Origin: Herpetosiphonaceae bacterium
Lineage (GTDB): Bacteria > Chloroflexota > Chloroflexia > Chloroflexales > Herpetosiphonaceae
Length of the DNA stretch: 47,795 nt
Assembly (NCBI GenBank): GCA_034437415.1
Contig: DAOTUS010000173.1
Coordinates: 1 to 47,795 of the forward strand
Direction: 5' to 3'
Part shown: positions 2,283 to 44,802 of the stretch, piece after piece
Layout: every line of letters starts with the position of its first letter
Numbering within the stretch: the stretch's first letter is position 1
Program-made: the position numbers and the translations under genes
The notes under the pieces: model-generated
Database searches by the model: none
What the model saw: only the letters and a program-made list of their open reading frames with translations
Told to the model about the DNA's origin: nothing

Positions 2283-2543
2283 ATGTGCAATATCACGATT
2301 GACCACGGCTGGTACGCCGAGCGCGAGCGGGCAATGGCGGCGCTGACGGCGCAGTGCATCGCCAGCATCGTCAAGGTTGCCGATGCTGCTCCAGGCTCGA
2401 TTGCACCGGCAACCAAGGCAGCTCTTGACGCCGTGCTCGCCGTCTACGTCCGGGCAGCCGCCGACCACTACCGCGCCACCCCGCGCGACTTTACGCGCTG
2501 CCCCGAGTGTGGGCAGTCGCTACCACAGGAGGATCAACCATGA
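2283..2543 (+). CDS. Hypothetical protein ending in a PRDFTRCPECG zinc-knuckle-like tail
   Basis: The internal ATG (MCNITIDHGWY..) lies directly after the stop of the preceding mini-protein. The longer track ORF start at 2229 overlaps that gene. Confidence 0.45.
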   Translation: MCNITIDHGWYAERERAMAALTAQCIASIVKVADAAPGSIAPATKAALDAVLAVYVRAAADHYRATPRDFTRCPECGQSLPQEDQP

Positions 2544-2800
2544 CTGACCAGACAACACCCGAGCAGCGGGCCGAGCACGTGTACACGGCCACGATCTGGC
2601 AATATCTCGACAATGTGCTCCGTGGCGATTTTGTGGTCAGGCAGGAGATGATCGACCACATCGCCGCCGAGATACGCGCCGCCGCCCCGCGCTGGATACC
2701 AGTGAGCGAGCGGATGCCGGATGATGAACAGTTTGTTTTGGCCCTGCCAGAATGGGGATTCCCTGTTGTTGACTTTAGAAAAAAGCAACCTGGAGCCTGA
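2540..2800 (+). CDS. DUF551-like phage protein; the zero frame stops at 2800 and the conserved C-terminal motif lies in the -1 frame (to 2877)
   Basis: RBS ggagga is followed by ATG at 2540 (MTDQTTPEQ..). WIPVSERMPDDEQFVL resembles the DUF551 start, and the expected THW.P.P.PP end (THWQPMPGPPQ) is encoded in the -1 frame downstream of A_AAA_AAG at 2779..2785. Confidence 0.6.
   Translation: MTDQTTPEQRAEHVYTATIWQYLDNVLRGDFVVRQEMIDHIAAEIRAAAPRWIPVSERMPDDEQFVLALPEWGFPVVDFRKKQPGA
2779..2785 (+). promoter_or_regulatory. Candidate -1 frameshift heptamer A_AAA_AAG (or a homopolymer indel)
   Basis: Codons aga aaa aag place the heptamer in X_XXY_YYZ phase. The -1 frame then reads ATWSLNVPTHTHTITHWQPMPGPPQEATND and stops at 2875..2877. 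Confidence 0.4.
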
Positions 2801-2869
2801 ATGTGCCTACCCATACGCACACCATCACCCACTGGCAGCCGATGCCCGGCCCACCACAGGAGGCCACGA

Positions 2870-3112
2870 ATGATTAATCAATACCCACGCGACTTCACCC
2901 GATGCCCGCATGCGGGCATAAGCAGGAGGGCTAGAACGATGGACGAAGAGTATTGCGCTGTTTGCAAAACGATGACTGGCGGGTCAAACTGCGAGATGTG
3001 CGATGCATCTATTTGCTTCGATCATTCGCGGCTTGATATTAATGGCATAGTGTTTTGTCCTGATTGCTACGAAGATTTATGTGCCACGATGGATGCGTAT
3101 AGCCCTGAGTAA
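2870..3112 (+). CDS. B-box-like zinc-ribbon protein (80 aa; possible alternative start at 2939)
   Basis: caggagg RBS followed by ATG (MINQYPRDFTRCPHAG..). The C-terminal part, YCAVCKTMTGGSNCEMCDASICFDHSRLDINGIVFCPDCY, has the same Cys/His spacing as 2107..2280. Confidence 0.5.
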   Translation: MINQYPRDFTRCPHAGISRRARTMDEEYCAVCKTMTGGSNCEMCDASICFDHSRLDINGIVFCPDCYEDLCATMDAYSPE

Positions 3113-32152: not shown

Positions 32153-34801
32153 ATGACAAACATGCTTGACTGGGCACTCAAATACGCGGCCAGAGACTGG
32201 GCGGTCTTGCCACTGCACAGCATCATCCGTGACCGCTGCAGCTGTGGCAATCCCGACTGTGACTCGCCCGGCAAGCACCCGCGTATCGGTGGCGGCCTCA
32301 AAAAAGCCACCACCGATCCCACCGCTATCCGCAGTTGGTGGGGACGCTGGCCGGACGCCAACATCGGCATTCGCACCGATGGGCTGTGCGTCATCGACAT
32401 TGATGGCCCCACGGGCGAACAATCGCTTGATGAACTGGAGCAAACCTACTGCGAGATGCCACCAACCTACACCGTCTCGACGGGGAAGGGTGAGCATTAT
32501 TATTTTGCAGACCCCGAGCGCATCTTCCGCAACCGCGCCGGGCTTGTACCTGGCATCGACATACGCGCCTGTGGCGGCTACGTGGTGGCACCGCCATCAA
32601 ACCATATCAGCGGTCGTACCTATACCGTCCTCTTTGACGGGTGGGGAGATCAGCCCGTCCCGCCATGGCTCGCCGAGCTGATCAAAAAGCCAGAACCGAA
32701 AGCAGATACCGAGTGGACCACAACCACGCTGCCAAGCCCGGCGGCGAACGCCAGCGGCTACGCCCAGGTCGCCCTGGCCAATGAGCTGGCCGCGCTGGCC
32801 AGCAGCAGCAACGGCACCCGCAACGATAATCTGAATAAAGCAGCCTTCAACCTCTTCCAGCTGGTCAAAGCGGGCGAACTTGATACCACTGAGACCACCG
32901 ACCTGCTGGCCCAGACTGCCAGCCAGCTCGGGCTTGCTCCCACTGAGATCGAAAAGACCCTCAAGAGCGCCTGGGCCAGTGCCCCGGAGCGCGATATGGC
33001 CGCCGCAAAACGTCGCCGTACCGAGACGACACCACCACTGGCACCACCAGCACCGACTGACCAGCCACCAGCACCGACGGATAACCCGTCGCTGACTGCT
33101 GGCAGCTCAGGAGCTGCCGCTGCTGTTACTGCTGCTGACACGTTTCCCTACAGCATCAGCGATAACCGGATGTTTATTACCATGATGAAAAAAGACGGTC
33201 CTGAGCATAAAGTCATCGCCGACTTTCAGGCCACGATTACCACCGAGCAGCGCAGCGAAGAGAACGATAAAACCTTTGTCCTAAACGGCCGCACCGCCGC
33301 CAATAAACCATTCAGCCTCACGCTGCCCGCCAAAGACTTCGCCAGCGACGTTATCCTCCGAGGTGCTCTGACCGCCGCCGCCGGGGCCAAAGCGCCCGTT
33401 CGGGCCGGGATGAGCCGCCACCTGGCGCCAGCTATCCAGCGATTGAGCGGCGAGATTGCCTATCAGACCACCTACGGCCGCACGGGCTGGGCCGGGGATC
33501 GTTTCCTCATTCCAGGCCGTGAGCCGGAGGGCGCAACCATCAGCCTGCCGCGCAACCTACCCTACAGCGCGAGCGACACGCCACTGGATCTGACCGCGCT
33601 ACACGCACTGATCCAGGCCAAGCCGCCGGGCCGCTCGACGATCGTGCTGAGCTTTGCCCTGTGCGCCCCGCTGGCCCAGCTGGTCGGCTGGCGCAACGAG
33701 CGGCACGGCCTGTTTATTGCCGGCCGCACCGGCGCCCTGAAAAGCTCCTGGTCACAGGCGCTGATGACTATCTGGGGCCGGGATTTTCTCCGCGACGACC
33801 TGCTCATCAAGTGGGGAATGGGCAACACGCCGAACGCGCTGATGGCGCTGGCCACGCACTGCCACGATATGCCGATGCTCATTGATAACTACAAACCGAA
33901 TACCGGTGGCGGGCATAAGGATTTCACCAACACGGTCCACAACATGATCGAAGGAGGCGAAAAGAACCGCCTCAACCGCGCCGCTGAGCTCCGCGAGGCC
34001 AAGCCTGTCTTTACGTGGCCGCTGATGACGGGCGAGGACGTTCCCGACAGCGACCCGGCCAGTCTCGCCCGCGTGCTGATTGTGCCGTTCGCCGAATCGA
34101 CCGACGAGGAAAAACGCCAGCTCACTATCGCCCAGCAGCGCACGCTCGAATCTATCGGCTGGCGCTGGCTGGAGTGGCTGGAATCCGACCACGGCCGCGA
34201 ATGCGCCGAGAAGGCCGCCGCGCTCTTTGAAACGTGCCGGCGCGAGTGGGCCACCTACCTGCAGTCCTGTCGGGCTGATATGGTGAATACGCTTCGTGTC
34301 GCCACGTCGCTGGCAATCAACGAGCTGACCTGGCTGGTGCTGTGTGAGCACCCCGAGCTTGGCCCGGCGGCGCAGCAGTATAGCGAGGCGCACAGCCAGG
34401 GCCTGGAGGAGGTGGCCGCCCTGATGGCGAGCTACACCGCCGAGAGCCTGGAGGCCACGCGCTATCTGGCGGCGCTGCGTGAGCTGCTGGCCAGCGGGCG
34501 TGCCGAGCTGCGCTTTATCACCGATGAAAGCACCAGTTACGACAAAGAGCGCATGATCGGCTGGCAGGACGGCGAGACCTGCTACCTGCTCCCCCAGGTC
34601 ACGCGGTCCACGATTGACCGCCTGCTGGGGCCGCAGTCGCTCAACGGGATGAGCGCGAAAACGCTCTACACCCAGCTCGCCGGGCTGGGCCACATCGTCG
34701 CCGCAGATGTAGGTAGACAGACCAAAAACAAGTGGATTGCCGGGCGCTCGCAGTGCGTGCTGTGGCTGCGCTTTGAGGATCTTTTTCCTGAGGAGGACTA
34801 A
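32153..34801 (+). CDS. Bifunctional primase-polymerase / PriCT / DUF927-type helicase replication protein
   Basis: N-terminal Prim-Pol motifs are WAVLPLH, CDSPGKHPR, NIGIRTDG and VIDIDG. PriCT-like GTRNDNLNKAAFNLFQL is present. The large C-terminal domain includes an NTPase-like AGRTGALKS. Confidence 0.75.
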   Translation: MTNMLDWALKYAARDWAVLPLHSIIRDRCSCGNPDCDSPGKHPRIGGGLKKATTDPTAIRSWWGRWPDANIGIRTDGLCVIDIDGPTGEQSLDELEQTYCEMPPTYTVSTGKGEHYYFADPERIFRNRAGLVPGIDIRACGGYVVAPPSNHISGRTYTVLFDGWGDQPVPPWLAELIKKPEPKADTEWTTTTLPSPAANASGYAQVALANELAALASSSNGTRNDNLNKAAFNLFQLVKAGELDTTETTDLLAQTASQLGLAPTEIEKTLKSAWASAPERDMAAAKRRRTETTPPLAPPAPTDQPPAPTDNPSLTAGSSGAAAAVTAADTFPYSISDNRMFITMMKKDGPEHKVIADFQATITTEQRSEENDKTFVLNGRTAANKPFSLTLPAKDFASDVILRGALTAAAGAKAPVRAGMSRHLAPAIQRLSGEIAYQTTYGRTGWAGDRFLIPGREPEGATISLPRNLPYSASDTPLDLTALHALIQAKPPGRSTIVLSFALCAPLAQLVGWRNERHGLFIAGRTGALKSSWSQALMTIWGRDFLRDDLLIKWGMGNTPNALMALATHCHDMPMLIDNYKPNTGGGHKDFTNTVHNMIEGGEKNRLNRAAELREAKPVFTWPLMTGEDVPDSDPASLARVLIVPFAESTDEEKRQLTIAQQRTLESIGWRWLEWLESDHGRECAEKAAALFETCRREWATYLQSCRADMVNTLRVATSLAINELTWLVLCEHPELGPAAQQYSEAHSQGLEEVAALMASYTAESLEATRYLAALRELLASGRAELRFITDESTSYDKERMIGWQDGETCYLLPQVTRSTIDRLLGPQSLNGMSAKTLYTQLAGLGHIVAADVGRQTKNKWIAGRSQCVLWLRFEDLFPEED

Positions 34802-35403: not shown

Positions 35404-35843
35404 TGCCAATGGATATGAGCCGCTACCCGCCCGACTGGAAAACCATTAGCCTGGCCATTCGCGAGCGGGCCAACTGGGTCTGTGAATGGTGCGGGGTGAA
35501 GAATAAAGCCATCGGCGCTCGTGACCGCGACGGGCGCTGGCACGATGAGGATGATATCCATTCAATGAACAGTGGCGCTGGCTTTGATGCTTTCGGCGAT
35601 GAGTTCCCGACGATGATTCGCATTGTCCTGACTGTCGCCCACCTCGGCACGGTATACCCGGACGGCACACCGGGCGACAAGCACGACAAGATGGACTGTC
35701 GCCCCGAGAACCTAACCGCCCTCTGCCAGCGCTGCCACCTGAACTACGACCGTGATGAGCACGCCCACAACGCCCGCCAGACGCGACTGCGCAAGAAGGC
35801 GCGGGCCGTCGCCAGAGCTGGGCAGGCCGAGCTACTGGTGTAG
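35403..35843 (+). CDS. HNH endonuclease
   Basis: CEWCG ... VAHL ... ENLTALCQRCHLNYD is an HNH signature. Confidence 0.75.
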   Translation: MPMDMSRYPPDWKTISLAIRERANWVCEWCGVKNKAIGARDRDGRWHDEDDIHSMNSGAGFDAFGDEFPTMIRIVLTVAHLGTVYPDGTPGDKHDKMDCRPENLTALCQRCHLNYDRDEHAHNARQTRLRKKARAVARAGQAELLV

Positions 35844-35874
35844 CTATCCACAAATACATCTGTTCTATCCACAC

Positions 35875-35902
35875 AGACCGAGCTGCCGCTCAGGTCTTTT
35901 TT
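35875..35902 (+). terminator. Rho-independent terminator between the HNH gene and the modification island
   Basis: agaccgagc-tgcc-gctcaggtct followed by tttttt. Confidence 0.6.
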
Positions 35903-35919
35903 ATTGCCACGAGGTTTTT

Positions 35920-38454
35920 ATGACTGCTACCTATACCGAGTTTCTGACCTCAAAAATAACCCTGGTTGCGGCCCACGGGCTGACCGATATCGACCGCTCT
36001 GGCTTTCACCCGTCGCTCAAGCCCCATCAGGTCGATGCAACCGAATGGCTGCTGCAGCAGGGTCAGGCGCTGCTGGGCGCATCGTTTGGCCTAGGCAAGA
36101 CGCGAGTACAGTGCCAGGTCGCTCAGGTTATCCACCAGCGCACACAACAGCCCATCTTGGTCTGTGCGCCGCTGGGCGTGAAACATCAGTTTCAGCACGA
36201 AGACGGGCCTATCTTCGGCCAGGATTGGCAGTACGTGCGCACCGATGCCGAGGTACAGGCCGCCACGTCGCCCTACCTCATCACCAACTATGAGCGCGTC
36301 CGCGACGGCGGCATTGACCCGCGCAACCACACCTTCGCCGCCGTCAGCCTCGACGAGGGCAGCGTGCTGCGCAGCTTGGGCAGCAAGACCTACCAGACGT
36401 TTCAGGAGGTCTTCGCCACGGTCCCCTACCGCTTCGTCTGTACCGCCACACCCGCGCCGAACGCCTACCGCGAGCTGATTTACTACGCCCAGTTCTTAGG
36501 CGTGATGGACTCCGGCCAGGCGCTGACGCGCTGGTTCAAGCGCAACCCGCTCAAAGCAGGCGACCTGACCCTCCACGATCATCACGCTGAGGAGTTCTGG
36601 CTGTGGGTTGCCAGCTGGGCGCTATTTCTGTATTCGCCGGCGGACTTGGGCTATTCGGACGAAGAATACGACCTGCCGCCGATCAACATCCACTGGCACC
36701 GTCTGGAGGTCGACCACCACCGCGCCTGGGATAAAACAGACAACCGGGGCCAGCACAAGCTGCTGCTCGATGCCGCCAACAGCATCAGCGATGCCAGCCG
36801 CGAGAAGCGAGCCACACTCCCCGACCGCATCGCCAAGATGCGCGAGATTATCGACGATCACCCGGGCCAGCACTGGCTGCTGTGGCACCACCTCGAGGAT
36901 GAACGGCGAGCCATCGAGCATGCCATACCAGCCTCCATCAGCGTCTACGGCTCACAGGACCTCGATGAGCGCGAGCGGCGGATTATGGCGTTTGCCCACG
37001 GCGAAATCCCTATTCTAGCCACCAAGCCGGAGATAGCCGGAAGCGGCTGTAACTTTCAGCACCACTGCCATAGCAATATCTTTTTGGGCATTGACTACCG
37101 CTTTGAAGATTTTATTCAGGCCATCCATCGCACCTATCGCTTTCAGCAGCAGCACCCGGTCGATATCCACATCATCTACGCCGAGAGCGAAGACACCGTC
37201 GCCGGGATCCTGAAAGCCAAGTGGGAGCGCCACAACCAGCTGGTGCAGACGATGCGCGACCTGGTTGCCACCTACGGCCTGAGCCACGCGGCAATGCAGC
37301 GCAGCCTGAGCCGCCGGATTGGTATCGAGCGCCACGTTATTCGCGGCGAGCGCTTTACGGCCGTTAACAACGACTGCGTTGCCGAGCTGCCCCATCTCGC
37401 CGCCGACAGCGTTGGAATGGTGCTGACCTCAATTCCGTTCGGCAATCAGTACGAATATTCAACCCAGTATGAAGACTTCGGCTACAACGATGATGACGAG
37501 CGCTTTCTGACCCAGATGGATCACCTCATTCCTGAGCTGCTGCGGGTGCTGCAGCCGGGCCGTATCGCCGCGATCCACGTCAAGGACCGCATTCTCTATG
37601 GCCACCAGACCGACAGCCGTTTCCTTGAGCTCAACCCCTTCAGCGATAAGGTGGTTGAGCGCTTTCGCCGCCACGGCTTTCTGTTTCAATCGCGCCGCAC
37701 GATTATGACCGATGTGGTGCGCGAGAACAACCAAACCTACCGCCTTGGCTGGAGTGAGGTTTGCAAAGACAGTACCAAGATGGGCTGTGGCTCGCCCGAG
37801 TATCTGCTGACCTTTCGGAAGCCGCCGACGGAGACCACGACCGCCTACGCCGACAACCCGGTGGCCAGAGAGAAAGACAGCTACAGCCGGGGCCAGTGGC
37901 AAATCGACGCCGCCGCGCTCTGGCGGTCCAGCGGCAACCGGCTGCTGCAGCCGCACGAGGTCGCCGAGCTGAACCCCGGCGATGCGATGGCGCTGTGGGA
38001 ATCGGAGCAGGCCAACCTGCCCTACGACTACAACCGCCACGTCGCCATCTGCGAGACCGTCGCCGAACGCGGCAAGCTCCCCAGCAGTTTCATGATGTTT
38101 CCCCCGAAAGTGACCCGCCACGACGGCGAGCAGGTCTGGGACGACATCATCTACATCAAAACCCTCAACGCCGAGCAGGCGCGGCGCAATGTTGAGCAGC
38201 ACCTGTGCCCACTCCCGCTGGATATCGTGGAGCGGGCCATTCGCCTGTACTCAATGCCTGACGAGCTGGTGCTGGATCCCTTCGGCGGCCTGATGACCGT
38301 TCCCTACGCCGCGCTGAAGATGGGGCGCCACGCCTATGGCATCGAGCTGCACACACCCTACTTCACCGACGGCGTGCGCTACTGCCGTCAGGCTGAGCAG
38401 CAGGCCAACGCACCGACCTTGTTTGATCTCGTCCTGACTCAGGAGGCCGCCTGA
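35920..38454 (+). CDS. SNF2/DEAD-like helicase fused to a beta-class N4/N6 DNA methyltransferase
   Basis: Helicase motifs are GLGKT, LDEGS, CTATP and QAIHRTYR. The methyltransferase half has motif IV-like TSIPFGNQY followed by motif I LDPFGGLMTV. Confidence 0.75.
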   Translation: MTATYTEFLTSKITLVAAHGLTDIDRSGFHPSLKPHQVDATEWLLQQGQALLGASFGLGKTRVQCQVAQVIHQRTQQPILVCAPLGVKHQFQHEDGPIFGQDWQYVRTDAEVQAATSPYLITNYERVRDGGIDPRNHTFAAVSLDEGSVLRSLGSKTYQTFQEVFATVPYRFVCTATPAPNAYRELIYYAQFLGVMDSGQALTRWFKRNPLKAGDLTLHDHHAEEFWLWVASWALFLYSPADLGYSDEEYDLPPINIHWHRLEVDHHRAWDKTDNRGQHKLLLDAANSISDASREKRATLPDRIAKMREIIDDHPGQHWLLWHHLEDERRAIEHAIPASISVYGSQDLDERERRIMAFAHGEIPILATKPEIAGSGCNFQHHCHSNIFLGIDYRFEDFIQAIHRTYRFQQQHPVDIHIIYAESEDTVAGILKAKWERHNQLVQTMRDLVATYGLSHAAMQRSLSRRIGIERHVIRGERFTAVNNDCVAELPHLAADSVGMVLTSIPFGNQYEYSTQYEDFGYNDDDERFLTQMDHLIPELLRVLQPGRIAAIHVKDRILYGHQTDSRFLELNPFSDKVVERFRRHGFLFQSRRTIMTDVVRENNQTYRLGWSEVCKDSTKMGCGSPEYLLTFRKPPTETTTAYADNPVAREKDSYSRGQWQIDAAALWRSSGNRLLQPHEVAELNPGDAMALWESEQANLPYDYNRHVAICETVAERGKLPSSFMMFPPKVTRHDGEQVWDDIIYIKTLNAEQARRNVEQHLCPLPLDIVERAIRLYSMPDELVLDPFGGLMTVPYAALKMGRHAYGIELHTPYFTDGVRYCRQAEQQANAPTLFDLVLTQEAA

Positions 38455-39554
38455 TGCAACCGCTTCGCGTGATTGAAATCTGTGCCGGGATTGGAGGGAT
38501 CGCGTTGGGTTTTAAGATGGTCGGCGGCTTTGAGCACGTCGCCTTTGTAGAAAGAGACGACTATGCCTGCAAAATCCTCGAAAAACACTGGCCGCAGGTT
38601 CCTCAGTTTCGCGATGTCCGCAGTGTCAGCGCTTGGAATCTACCGCCGTGCGATGTCCTGGCGGGCGGCATACCCTGCCAGCCACACAGCTTGGCAGGAA
38701 AGCGTGGTGCAGGATCCGACGAACGGGATCTTTGGCCTGAGTTCTTCCGGCTCATTCGCGAAATTGGGCCGAGGTACGCAGTGGTGGAAAACGTCCCCGG
38801 ACTTCGTAGCTCCGATCGCGGATTGTTTTTTGGCCGCATTCTCGCAGACCTGGCCTCGGTCGGGTACGATGCGGAATGGATTAGCTTATCAGCTGGTGAA
38901 CTGGGAGCGCCGCATGAGCGCGAAAGGGTCTGGATTGTGGCCTACCCCACGAGCGTACAGTTTCAACGAGAGCCATGCGCCGGGTCTGACTGCGCTCGAC
39001 ATCCGGGTACGCGGGTTATACCCGGAAAAGAAACGCTATTGGCCGACACCGACCGTTCCGAATGGAGGACGATCACCGAAGGGAGGCATGTCAATGACAG
39101 GGATGACGCCGGACGGCAAGAAGCGCCAGGTCGATCTTCAACACGCGGTACGGATGGTCGAGCGGCAAATGTGGCCAACGCCGAGCGACGCGGTGTACGA
39201 CCGCAACAGCCGCCCGCTGAACGAGGTGGTGCTGCGCTTTGCAACGCCCCAGGCGCGGGACTTCCGATCAGGGCAAACGATCCGCTGGGAGGATATGGCA
39301 CGGAGCCGCAATCTGAACGATCAGATCGGCGGGCAGCTCAACCCCGATTGGGTATCTCTGCTGATGGGATTTCCAGCGAGTTGGACGGACTTAACGCCTG
39401 GGGCGATGGATGGGAGGACGGAACCCCGCGAACCGCCCGAGGCGGAGTCAATCGCGTCGCCCGCCTGACCTGCCTGGGAAACGCGGTCGTGCCACAGTGC
39501 GCCGCCGTGATTGGCGCGTACATCTGGCAGCACTATCAGGAAATACAGACATGA
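38454..39554 (+). CDS. DNA (cytosine-5)-methyltransferase; the frame-A ORF carries motifs I-VIII and X but an odd Arg/Gly-rich middle
   Basis: aggagg RBS and a TGATG overlap. Motifs are CAGIGG (I), GIPCQPHS (IV), ENVPG (VI), GAPHERERVWIV (VIII) and LGNAVVPQ (X). Confidence 0.75.
   Translation: MQPLRVIEICAGIGGIALGFKMVGGFEHVAFVERDDYACKILEKHWPQVPQFRDVRSVSAWNLPPCDVLAGGIPCQPHSLAGKRGAGSDERDLWPEFFRLIREIGPRYAVVENVPGLRSSDRGLFFGRILADLASVGYDAEWISLSAGELGAPHERERVWIVAYPTSVQFQREPCAGSDCARHPGTRVIPGKETLLADTDRSEWRTITEGRHVNDRDDAGRQEAPGRSSTRGTDGRAANVANAERRGVRPQQPPAERGGAALCNAPGAGLPIRANDPLGGYGTEPQSERSDRRAAQPRLGISADGISSELDGLNAWGDGWEDGTPRTARGGVNRVARLTCLGNAVVPQCAAVIGAYIWQHYQEIQT
38563..39468 (+). other. Alternate (+1) frame open through the C5-MTase gene, encoding WPTP repeats and LNPDWVSLLMGFPASWTD
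   Basis: Frame B reads TWPRSGTMRNGLAYQL..GSGLWPTPRA..YWPTPTVPNGGRSPKGG..MWPTPSDAV..ATPQARD..LNPDWVSLLMGFPASWTD. These motifs normally sit between motif VIII and motif X of phage C5-MTases. Confidence 0.5.
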
Positions 39555-40435
39555 AACACCTCCACATCCCGCCGATTATCCGCGCCGCCCTCGACAAAGG
39601 AGCGGCGCTTTCTATTTCCATCAGCGGCGGCAAAGATAGCCAGGCGCTGCTACTGGAGCTGGTTGCCGCCTACAAAGCCAACGGCTGGACTGGCCCTATC
39701 TTCGCTGTTCACGCGCACCTGGGCCGCGCCGAGTGGCCGCAGACGATGGCGCACTGCCAGGCGCTGTGTGATGAGGCCGGGGTTGCACTCTTCATCGTTG
39801 GCCGCACGGCCGGGGCTGACCTGGTCGACCGCTGGAAAGAGCGAATGCACACACTGGCCGGCACGGGCAAACCGTTCTGGAGCAGCGCGGCCCAGCGCTA
39901 CTGCACCAGCGATATGAAGCGCGGCCCGATTGACCAGTTGCTGCGTAAGTGCAGTCTGGTCATCAGCGCCGAGGGTGTGCGCGGCGATGAAAGTCCTAAC
40001 CGCGCCAAAAAGCCGACCGTCGCCATTCGTCCGCAGATCACGGCCCAGGGCCTGCGCGGCCTGACGATGGAGGAGGCGCTGAGCTATCGCTCATTCAAGC
40101 AGCGGCTGGCCCTGACGTGGTATCCGCTCCACGACTGGACCGAGCGCGACGTCTGGCAGGCCTGCGGCACCGACCTTGACGACCTACGGGAGCGGCAAGC
40201 GCTGTACCGCCTAGGGCACGAGGCTATCGCGCTCGACGGCTGGTCAGCCCACCCGGCCTACGTCTACGGCAACCAGCGGCTCTCCTGTGCGCTGTGCATC
40301 CTGGGCAGCCGCAACGACCTCCAGAACGGCGCGAAGTACAACCCGGCGCTCTACGCCGAGCTGGTGCAGATGGAGCGAGAAAGCGGCTTCACATTCCGCC
40401 AGGATCTGGCCCTGGCTGATTTGGAGGTGTTATGA
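39551..40435 (+). CDS. PAPS-reductase/DndC/IbrA-like PP-loop ATPase
   Basis: ATGA overlap with the upstream stop. PP-loop SISISGGKDSQAL, and a C-terminal CALCILG Cys pair. Confidence 0.7.
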   Translation: MKHLHIPPIIRAALDKGAALSISISGGKDSQALLLELVAAYKANGWTGPIFAVHAHLGRAEWPQTMAHCQALCDEAGVALFIVGRTAGADLVDRWKERMHTLAGTGKPFWSSAAQRYCTSDMKRGPIDQLLRKCSLVISAEGVRGDESPNRAKKPTVAIRPQITAQGLRGLTMEEALSYRSFKQRLALTWYPLHDWTERDVWQACGTDLDDLRERQALYRLGHEAIALDGWSAHPAYVYGNQRLSCALCILGSRNDLQNGAKYNPALYAELVQMERESGFTFRQDLALADLEVL

Positions 40436-40872
40436 CGTTCGACAACAGCGACGGGTTTTTCAACCTACTGCCCGACACAGCTCCAAAGCGCAAGTCCAAG
40501 CCATCCGATAACCGCTCGCTCGAGCGGGATATTCAAAAGGCTATTATCAAAGCCCTGCGGAAGCGGGATATTTTCGTCTGTCGGGTCAATGCCGGAAAAA
40601 TCAACATCAAAGACGGTGCTGACCCGACCGACAAAGGCCGCTACATCGTCGGGGCCACGGCGGGCCACAGCGACCTCTATGGCGTGCTGGCCCCACACGG
40701 TCGGGCGTGGTTCATCGAGGTGAAACGGCCCGGCGAAAAGCCCACAGTGCTGCAATCGCAATTCCTGAAAGCCCGCGCCGCCGAGGGCGCCCTGGTGGGA
40801 GTTGCAGACAGCGTGGTATCCGCGCTCGCGCTGTTTGGATTTGAGCCGACGCGATGGGAGGTTGGAAAATAA
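40432..40872 (+). CDS. VRR-NUC domain nuclease (PD-(D/E)xK)
   Basis: GHSDLYGVL ... WFIEVKRPGEKPTVLQSQF follows the VRR-NUC D...E.K..Q pattern. Confidence 0.7.
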   Translation: MTFDNSDGFFNLLPDTAPKRKSKPSDNRSLERDIQKAIIKALRKRDIFVCRVNAGKINIKDGADPTDKGRYIVGATAGHSDLYGVLAPHGRAWFIEVKRPGEKPTVLQSQFLKARAAEGALVGVADSVVSALALFGFEPTRWEVGK

Positions 40873-41747
40873 TGCTCTTCTACCCATCCAAAAATAACAA
40901 CGCGCTCAACCGCCGCCCATTCTCACCCGACCAGCTCACAGGCCGGGCGATGCTCAATCCACACTACCGCGTGCTGGTCGACCGCGACACACGAGCCATC
41001 TGTGACAGCGGCGCGTTTCAAGATGATGGCGTAGCGCGGCCGCGACTCCAGCCCTGGGCAGCCCTCCAGCGCCAGCTCACCTTTGAGCAGTGGCTGAGCT
41101 GGCAGGTCACGGGTACGCCAGACGACTGGCATTTCGAGAGCATCATCACCTATGACCAGATGTTCGGCGTCGACGAGGCAATGATCGACGGCAAGAAAGT
41201 CAAGACCCGTGGCACGATTGAGACCGCCCAGCCCGCCGTCGATGAGACCCTCCGGGCGGCCGCCTACTATGCCAGCCAGCGTGACAGGATCCAGGGCCGG
41301 GTCTGCTTTGCCGCCCAGGGGATAAACCCTGACCACTACCTCAATAGCTGTGTTGTGCCGATGCTTGATGTAATGCAGGACGGTGACTGGTTTGCCTTTG
41401 GCGGCTTCTGCATTATCGGCAAGGTGCCGAGCCTGAAGCCCTACTTCTATGAGACGGTCGAGCGCACTCTGCCGCTCCTCAAAAAGCGCGGCGTGACACG
41501 GGCGCATATCCTCGGCGTGTGCGTGGCCGATGCTATCCAGTTCGCCAGCGCCGCTGGCAGGCGCCACGGCATTGAGATGAGCACTGATAGCAGTTCTATC
41601 GAGGTCAACAGCGTGATGGGCCGCGTGTTTGATGGTGGCCGCTGGCAGCAGCGCTGGAGTAAGGCCGAGAAGTATATCGACTATCACCCGCGTGACTTGG
41701 CCCACGCCAATATTGAGACGTATTCACAGTGGAGCAGTGGATTATGA
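40872..41747 (+). CDS. DpdA-like (tRNA-guanine transglycosylase fold) DNA transglycosylase candidate
   Basis: TAATG overlap with the upstream stop. In TGT order and spacing it has CDSGAFQ, ITYDQM, FAAQG, FAFGGFCIIG and ILGV..STDSS. No C-terminal Zn-binding CxCxxC..H is present. Confidence 0.6.
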   Translation: MLFYPSKNNNALNRRPFSPDQLTGRAMLNPHYRVLVDRDTRAICDSGAFQDDGVARPRLQPWAALQRQLTFEQWLSWQVTGTPDDWHFESIITYDQMFGVDEAMIDGKKVKTRGTIETAQPAVDETLRAAAYYASQRDRIQGRVCFAAQGINPDHYLNSCVVPMLDVMQDGDWFAFGGFCIIGKVPSLKPYFYETVERTLPLLKKRGVTRAHILGVCVADAIQFASAAGRRHGIEMSTDSSSIEVNSVMGRVFDGGRWQQRWSKAEKYIDYHPRDLAHANIETYSQWSSGL

Positions 41748-43113: not shown

Positions 43114-44802
43114 ATGCGAACAGCGCTCTATATTCGCTTCTCCAGCGAGAAACAAAAACAAGGGTCAAGCCTGCGAGACCAGTTGCAGCGCCTGCAGATG
43201 GATGCCCAGCTGGCCGGAGAGGAGGTGGTGGAAACATTCATCGACCAGGCGCAGTCAGGCACCAGCGTCAAGCACCGCAAAGAGTACCAGCGTCTGATGG
43301 AGTTCGTGCAGGCTGGCCACTGTGATATCGTTCGTCTGGAGAGCGTGGACCGAGGCCACCGCAACGACGGCGAGCGGCGCGACTTTGAGGCAGCCCTGAA
43401 ATCAGCCAAGGTCGAGATCATCTACTCCGGCGAGACCCGTGGCCAGGCGCCGGAGCAGCGGACGTTCAACCGCTCCATCAAGGGGATTGTGGCCGAGCTG
43501 GAGAGCGGGCAGATCAGCCAGCGAACCTATGACCGCCAGCTCTATCGGGCCAAACAGGGCAGACGACGCGGCGGCAGCGCCCCGTATGGCACGCTCATCG
43601 ATGGCCAGTGGTATCGACCAGACCCTGAGACCTATCCAACGCTCATCTGGATTTTAGAGCAGCGTGCTAGCGGGCACGGCTATCAGCGCATCACCAACAT
43701 GCTCAACCACGGCATCAGCCTCAACGGCGAGCCACCCGCTGTGCCAGTGCCGCCGGGGCATCTGGCGTGGCTGCGAAACCCCTGGATTGAACGCCAGGAT
43801 CCGTTGACCGGCGATATTGTCCAGCTCCCGCGCCCGTGCCCTCGCGCAAACTGGAATACCTCTACCGTGCGCAATCTCTGCCGCGATGCCATCAATGGTG
43901 TGTTGGCTGGTATTGTCCACTGGGGCCGTGAAAGTCGCAAATTCACCGAGGACCGCTATGGTCAGCCAAAGCAGGAGGTGGTGGTCGATACCGGCAAGGC
44001 GCTGGTACCGCCAGATCTGACGGCACGGGTCCGCGCCACCGAGCTGGCGCATCAGCACTTTATCGACCGCCCACTGCGGCCGCGCTCCACATTCCTCCTT
44101 CGTCTCCGCTGCGGTCTCTGTGGTGGCGCTATCTGTGGCGCAACCAGCTCAAACCATCGCCACGACAAGGTCTACCGCTATCGGACGTATATCTGCATCG
44201 GTCGCCAGCTCAACGCTGGATCCTGCACTCTGCCTGGTCTGCGAGTGCCGAAAATCGACCGGGCCATCGTCAAGGCGCTGATTGACTACACCGCCAGTAG
44301 TGCCTACCGGGAGATGCAAACCAGCCTCAATCAGTCGATTAGCCGCTACCGTGACGAGCTCACCGCAACCATCGCAACACTCACCGAAACCATCAGCGAC
44401 CTGGAGGCGGACCAGTCGCGGTCCCTTGATATTCTGCTGCGGACGGATCTCACCAGCACCGTGCTGGAGGCGCTCAATCATCGCCTGAACGGGGTTGCTG
44501 GGCGCATCGCGGACGCACGTCAACAGCGCGACACGGTGCAGGCTGGCATTGCTGCCCTGGACCAGCGAGCGCGGACCATTCGCGATATCCTTGGCGACAG
44601 CGCCATTCAGGCAGATGCGCTTGATCGTATTGAAGATGTCGACATTATCAAAGCACTCCAGCCCGCCGTGGCCGCCCTGGTCGCCGAGGCAACACTCCAT
44701 CAGATCGATAAACGAACGATGCAGGTCGCGCTCAAAATTCGGACATTAGACGGCATAATCCGTGGATTTGGTCAGTCCACGGACAGGGGTTCATCGCGCT
44801 GA
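43114..44802 (+). CDS. int: Large serine recombinase (integrase)
   Basis: The N-terminal resolvase domain ([11 protein letters not shown]) holds the catalytic Ser. A recombinase domain, a zinc ribbon (CGLCGG..C..YICIG...C) and a long coiled coil follow. The ORF crosses attR, so its last 5 codons are host DNA. Confidence 0.9.

Follow-up and report, generated by a model that had tools for sequence, protein, structure and literature searches.

The closest described counterpart of the locus reported here is M.EcoHK31I of E. coli HK31 (YGGCCR), a natural α/β DNA (cytosine-5) methyltransferase (C5-methyltransferase) (Lee, Kam and Shaw 1995, as presented in PMC2836561 and PMC3404938). Its β subunit is encoded entirely within the α gene, in another reading frame. 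Both subunits are needed; silent removal of the β start codons abolishes methylation, which is restored by β supplied in trans (PMC2836561, PMC3404938). The first 42 residues of β are dispensable in vitro, and several in-frame Met codons can serve as its start (PMC2836561). In M.AquI, α carries motifs I–VIII and β carries the distal variable region together with motifs IX–X (Karreman and de Waard 1990, as cited in PMC3404938). The locus analyzed here lies in a stretch of 47,795 nucleotides from a Herpetosiphonaceae bacterium (assembly GCA_034437415.1, contig DAOTUS010000173.1), the whole of which is referred to as the window. Two long reading frames overlap on its + strand, and we consider, with a probability of roughly 0.8, that they are the nested α and β genes of one two-subunit C5-methyltransferase.

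Both open reading frames (ORFs) exist, in a layout that is conserved; each frame is kept open, and along the gene the signature of selection passes from one frame to the other. Frame A encodes 366 amino acids (38454..39554) and frame B, in the +1 frame relative to A, encodes 301 amino acids from its first ATG (38563..39468), as read from the sequence and the ORF list. Frame B lies wholly inside frame A on the same strand and overlaps it from α codon 37 over ~900 nucleotides. Motifs I–VIII and X of a C5-methyltransferase are encoded in frame A, and a WPTP-repeat region followed by a motif IX-like block in frame B. A preliminary description of this DNA had reported the two open overlapping frames, the division of the motifs between them, and runs of four C (38945-38948) and four G (39400-39403); all of these are present as described.

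The resemblance to M.EcoHK31I considered here is one of layout, with β placed inside the α gene on the same strand and in the other frame. Two features set the window apart from M.EcoHK31I as described: ~60 codons over motifs VI–VIII are truly dual coding, and the middle of α is an unconstrained, disordered read-through. A blastn search of E. coli genomes for an M.EcoHK31I-like copy, using a member of the present family (L041), yielded no match. With M.AquI the locus shares the distribution of a C5-methyltransferase over two polypeptides split in the variable region. However, motif X resides on α, α does not end after motif VIII, and the genes overlap by ~900 nucleotides. Because motif X is on α, α must be read through the whole β region. 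The M.AquI division, with motif X on the B-frame protein, is common to five other loci (L165, L166, L076, L115 and L146). The monomeric enzymes M.HhaI and M.HaeIII possess the same type of catalytic large domain as α (PF00145), but in them a single frame and a single chain also hold the recognition domain and motif IX, whose counterparts in the window lie in the other frame. The features of the locus are as follows.

38440..38445, + strand, AGGAGG Shine-Dalgarno sequence of α, 8 nucleotides 5' of the α ATG, read from the sequence
38454..39554, + strand, putative α gene, C5-methyltransferase large domain; motifs I–VIII in residues 1-172, motif X and C-terminal helices in residues 330-366
38478-38498, + strand, α motif I
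38551..38556, + strand, AAAGAG, weak Shine-Dalgarno-like element 6 nucleotides 5' of ATG 38563, read from the sequence
38563..39468, + strand (+1 frame), putative β gene, 301 amino acids, nested in α
38563..38751, + strand, β leader, residues 1-63, a shadow of α motifs II–V
38664-38690, + strand, α motif IV, GGIPCQ, with the PCQ cysteine
38752..38955, + strand, dual-coded stretch, β N-domain (SFAKL..WWKTS..TWPRSGTMRNG..GLWPTP) over α motifs VI–VIII
38781-38801, + strand, α motif VI, VENV
38904-38945, + strand, α motif VIII, HERER
38956..39327, + strand, β WPTP-repeat region, presumed target-recognition domain, where the third positions of frame B are most variable
38970..39440, + strand, read-through "shadow" loop of α, residues 173-329 (~157 residues), open, not conserved as protein
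39328..39390, + strand, β motif IX-like block GGQLNPDWVSLLMGFPASWTD, assigned from pattern and position
39399..39497, + strand, α pre-X region and motif X (WGDGWEDGTPRTARGGVNRVARLTCLGNAVVPQ), matching the motif X region profile (AC model), with helices predicted at residues 331-342 and 347-365
39471-39497, + strand, α motif X, CLGNAVVPQ

Conservation of the layout and selection on both frames

The sample comprised 160 loci, drawn in equal numbers (80 each) from IMG/VR and from GTDB genomes (many bacterial phyla and some archaeal), from which three profiles were built for motifs I–VIII, frame B and the motif X region. The profile search found the A/B(+1)/A layout in nearly all of the ~160 loci, which derive from phages, bacteria and archaea. 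With frame B as query, 1296 homologous proteins were retrieved; nearly all of the best 120 are without a Pfam domain. A tblastn search with the middle of frame B matched 51 phage records. In Paenibacillus phage Bloom, gp57 (234 amino acids) is an annotated coding sequence nested in the +1 frame of gp56 (351 amino acids), itself annotated as "DNA cytosine methyltransferase", and the nested pair is annotated in related records too. A paper on Paenibacillus phage genomics gives two "DNA-cytosine methyltransferase" genes and does not comment on them. Frame A is 32% identical to gp56 (E 2e-42) and frame B is 31% identical to gp57 (E 5e-18). The alignment of each frame with phage homologues, which the preliminary description had proposed as a check, thus pairs A with the outer gene and B with the nested +1 gene. 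L170 (α 53% identical) and L171, the closest relatives of the window gene, were assembled independently and are likewise arranged A/B/A.

These data bear directly on the view that an ordinary single-frame gene has been broken by two homopolymer assembly errors, in the C4 and the G4 run, which was the first of three readings offered in the preliminary description. Both proposed junctions do adjoin runs of four bases, and the assembly is fragmented into 690 contigs. The layout nevertheless recurs in nearly all of the independently assembled loci, in genomes of isolated phages and in both L170 and L171, and a gene with such errors would be expected to show about three stops in the middle of frame A where none is seen. 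The probability of this explanation is close to negligible, and we reject it.

The absence of stops is a property of the family. In 135 of 136 complete loci, frame A can be read from motif I through motif X without meeting a stop. Its middle is stop-free in 128 of 129 loci, where synonymous shuffling of the frame-B codons predicts 2.8 stops per locus. In the window the middle of frame A has no stop against 3.2 expected, and 0.5% of the shuffles are stop-free; the double openness at this locus is not due to chance. Other long ORFs in the sampled loci supplied 317 control windows, in which off-frame stops number 3.2–3.5 per 130 codons, about the shuffled rate; 14–15% of these windows have none. 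GC content and codon usage were considered as causes of the openness and are ruled out by the synonymous shuffles and by the control ORFs. Conversely, frame B has no stop over the last 70 codons of the I–VIII region in any of 132 loci, against 1.3 expected per locus. An ordinary single-frame C5-methyltransferase in the window's own genome (L164, G000:C613:8987-9394) has stops in its +1 frame, which weakly matches the "shadow" part of the β profile.

The five loci with motif X in frame B, where recognition region, motif IX and motif X form one piece, have many frame A stops right after motif VIII; thus frame A is kept open only where read-through to motif X is needed. Close relatives serve as a natural control, in which the constraint on frame A is gone once motif X lies in the other frame. 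Two of them, L165:1-3714 and L166:1-3522 (minus strand; α from about nucleotide 1407 of the reverse complement), come from two genomes of the taxonomic family to which the window belongs. There, β reads in frame into motif X, as in M.AquI, and α ends 9 codons past motif VIII. Since L165 and L166 carry motif X on β, even close relatives differ in the subunit that bears it.

By codon-position entropy, the coding signature is that of frame A over motifs I–VIII, turns to frame B across the WPTP region and motif IX, and returns to frame A at motif X. In the region of the α loop, the nucleotides of which are shared with the recognition region and motif IX of β, it follows frame B and not frame A. 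In the ~60 codons before the end of motif VIII, site-wise codon usage shows the synonymous choices of α to be fixed such that the frame-B residues are retained, as in the following cases.

α Ala as GCC in 99% of sequences, preserving a frame-B Pro
α Gly as GGG in 86% of sequences, preserving a frame-B Gly
α Arg as CGA in 75% of sequences, preserving a frame-B Asp
α Val as GTG in 100% of sequences, preserving a frame-B Trp
α Tyr as TAC in 97% of sequences, preserving a frame-B Thr

The commonest codon for the same amino acids elsewhere in these genes accounts for just 35–45%. The window follows the family in these choices, for example in GCC and GGG at 38848-38880, the nucleotides that encode TWPRSGTMRNG in frame B just 5' of those for motif VIII in frame A. 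Because α synonymous sites are fixed there, frame B is translated and selected as protein from a point 5' of the supposed site of any frameshift. Block-averaged entropies had pointed to the frame-B N-terminus as a pure shadow of α. This holds for residues 1-63, over which (38563..38751) the synonymous sites of α are without constraint, and is rejected for residues ~64–130 by the site-wise codon usage.

The same observations weigh on a double programmed frameshift, +1 near 38945 and -1 near 39400, which would produce one canonical single-chain methyltransferase read in the order A-B-A, with junction peptides such as ..VWIVAYPRAYSF... A single composite protein would account for the motif order (I–VIII, recognition region, IX, X) and for the flips in the codon-position signature, and CCC_A at 38945-38949 is a conceivable +1 site. 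Such a protein does not require an open frame A middle, yet that middle is open, and stops break it precisely in those loci whose motif X lies in frame B. Nor does it require frame B to be open and constrained 5' of the shift, yet both are seen for at least 60–70 codons upstream. The junctions are at no fixed place, varying among subfamilies, and motif IX and the pre-X block share nucleotides in many loci. Neither a zero-frame stop nor a conserved slippery site is present, and a large review of frameshifting names no DNA methyltransferase case. We judge the frameshift very unlikely. A switchable or recoded enzyme, the second of the earlier readings, is likewise unsupported, as A is kept open, B is under selection upstream, and B has its own Shine-Dalgarno and ATG starts.

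The first ATG of frame B occurs at a few conserved positions across the loci. A Shine-Dalgarno match of at least 4 nucleotides precedes 66% of these codons but 18% of background positions, the share reaching 100% in two subfamilies. Outside the NTGAATG subclass described below, there are subfamilies with GGAGG or AAGGAG, made of α codons, before the β ATG. In the window, ATG 38563 is built from the α codons TAT GCC (Tyr-Ala), the origin of this ATG in the subfamily to which the window gene belongs. Frame B starts at the same place (+91) in five other loci, and L170 and L171 too have the ATG at Tyr-Ala. The α ATG for its part overlaps the TGA of the upstream gene (TGATG). A subclass of 52 loci (e.g. 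L003:220-300 and L019:2255-2330) has the β ATG 4 nucleotides after the α start, in the form NTGAATG, with the NTG starting α and the β ATG directly following a TGA in the frame of β. The two genes of this subclass are nearly co-extensive and share the conserved string NTGAATGAGCTGG, which suggests that one ribosome-binding site serves two frames.

A putative two-subunit methyltransferase

Frame A matches PF00145 with 153.6 bits (cut-off 22), the match being limited to residues 5-167 and profile positions 2-164 of 324, and TIGR00675 with 136.7 bits (cut-off 100.65). It also matches residues 11-178 of M.HhaI. The recognition domain and motif IX fall outside frame A, which hence does not correspond to a monomeric enzyme. 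AlphaFold2 (AF2), run with a 131-sequence alignment, placed α residues 1-172 and 330-366 at predicted local distance difference test (pLDDT) values above 88; residues 173-329 stayed under 50 for the most part and are nearly devoid of secondary structure. Foldseek superposes the α model on the large domain of M.HhaI with a root mean square deviation of 1.9 Å.

Frame B matched phrog_1008 (E 1.8e-27) and had no match in Pfam or NCBIfam. A tblastn search of plasmids with β produced just four weak partial matches. WPTP-type repeats of frame B lie at 38932-38955, 39037-39087 and 39169-39189, and the WPTP-repeat region (38956..39327) is homologous to the same frame in the Paenibacillus phages and in alignment A1. 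The block that contains LNPDWVSLLMGFPASWTD, within 39328-39390, has the form of motif IX as judged by its pattern and by where it lies in natural in-frame fusions, immediately ahead of motif X. Within it L, N, P, V, L and M are invariant across 131 sequences, and the block as a whole is invariant or nearly so. The frame-B segment runs in frame into motif X in P0016 and P0023, as it does in the five loci above. Such natural variants, which fuse frame B in frame with motif X, show that the frame-B segment truly belongs to a methyltransferase.

It is along these lines that frame B was compared with an independent protein, for instance a DNA-binding or anti-defence factor, next to a self-sufficient short methyltransferase encoded by α. 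The lack of a Pfam or NCBIfam family for β and the failure of AF2 to yield a confident small-domain fold would suit such a protein. However, α alone is without motif IX or a conserved recognition region, its middle is disordered and unconstrained as protein, B-frame segments continue into motif X, and the block LNPxWVxxLMGFPxxWT is shaped like motif IX. An independent frame-B protein is accordingly unlikely. Of the last reading in the preliminary description, the genuine nested gene stands, but the "WPTP protein" is most likely the second subunit of the methyltransferase, as in M.EcoHK31I, rather than one unrelated to the enzyme. A conserved frame-A middle with unconserved frame-B motifs, which that description had also considered, is the opposite of what is seen: the middle of A is not conserved and the motifs of B are.

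In the proposed two-subunit arrangement, ribosomes starting at ATG 38454 would read frame A straight through to make α, comprising the catalytic large domain (motifs I–VIII), the ~157-residue disordered loop and motif X; the loop would be a mere off-frame reading of the β coding sequence. Other ribosomes would start inside α and follow frame B to make β; the precise start codon is presumptive, with ATG 38563 or an in-frame Met close to it as the most likely site. The β subunit would comprise the leader, the N-domain, the WPTP-repeat recognition region and motif IX. The leader, with pLDDT of about 45–52 over residues 1-60, is probably disordered or dispensable. The open frames, the Shine-Dalgarno and ATG starts and the constrained α sites lend indirect support to the prediction that both chains are made and that both are needed for methylation. 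The two would assemble into the equivalent of a monomeric C5-methyltransferase with β in place of the small domain; formation of this heterodimer, its enzymatic activity and its sequence specificity are predicted from the sequences.

Several points weigh against this proposal. The predicted recognition domain of M.EcoHK31I was put in α (PMC2836561, PMC3404938), whereas the recognition-like WPTP region of the present family is in β. The Shine-Dalgarno element before ATG 38563 (AAAGAG) is weak. A PDB sequence search with the β profile found no match among solved structures, and the AF2 model of β alone is of low confidence (pLDDT 61, predicted template modelling score 0.29), with islands of moderate confidence at residues 61-120, 180-200 and around motif IX. 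The assignment of β as the small domain, which we consider most likely, derives from motif IX, its position and the natural fusions of β with motif X, and not from a fold match. Lastly, the sampled loci are mutually related, such that joint probabilities overstate their independence.

On balance we favor, with appreciable doubt, a broader view in which the gene is one member of a very large and largely unannotated class where the M.EcoHK31I layout is the rule. In length, its members would rank near the top of the same-strand overlapping gene pairs that are conserved in bacteria, archaea and phages. The "variable region" of α would be a meaningless loop merely kept open, and all target recognition would reside in β, contrary to the descriptions of M.EcoHK31I. 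A literature search for a family-wide description of nested C5-methyltransferase genes found none. Gene callers keep one of two heavily overlapping same-strand ORFs; therefore the catalytic or the recognition subunit is lost or called "hypothetical" at such loci. The α ORF alone would fail as a basis for predicting specificity, for predicting a restriction-modification or anti-restriction function, or for cloning the enzyme. The locus further provides a clear natural case of long dual coding, in which ~60 codons serve two proteins and ~150 more are kept open while coding nothing useful in the second frame.

Genomic neighborhood and variant loci

The methyltransferase gene is located in an operon of a mobile, phage-like element (a prophage-like region). 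The flanking genes are joined by TGATG and ATGA overlaps, and the neighborhood 35752-41747 is a DNA-modification operon. The neighboring features are listed below.

32153-34801, primase-polymerase
35752-38454, SNF2 helicase fused to an N6/N4 methyltransferase, 900 amino acids, upstream of α
from 39551, PAPS-reductase-like PP-loop protein, downstream of α
within 39551-41747, nuclease (phrog_93) and then a further gene, after the PP-loop gene
43114-44802, serine integrase

Good matches were found in just 2 of the 12 same-family genomes searched, a distribution that fits a mobile element. A mobile region that is patchy among relatives could harbor a decaying pseudogene in a defective prophage. 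Both ORFs are intact, though, all invariant residues of both the α and the β families are present in the window, and the synonymous choices of the family are retained; decay is highly improbable. A frame anomaly at 2779-2785, also raised in the preliminary description, is located where ORF 2507..2800 abuts ORF 2801..3112 (window 2507-3112) and has no bearing on the methyltransferase result.

Some members of the family carry additional sequences or are joined differently. Rare proteins, P0106 (284 amino acids) and P0013 (356 amino acids), join α motifs in frame with β sequence. In one form motifs I–VIII are followed by the recognition region and motif IX but motif X is absent; in the other, motif I is joined to frame B. 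Real fusions, deletions and sequencing errors are all conceivable origins. Two loci (L034:2215-3717 and L005:2311-3699) have an HNH-endonuclease-like ORF 3' of the β stop, between motifs IX and X. Frame A is open for ~1.5 kb across this ORF, which looks like a third gene lodged in the read-through loop of α. The frame-B-type proteins P0021 and P0067 contain a LAGLIDADG endonuclease domain (PF00961) inserted within the β N-domain.

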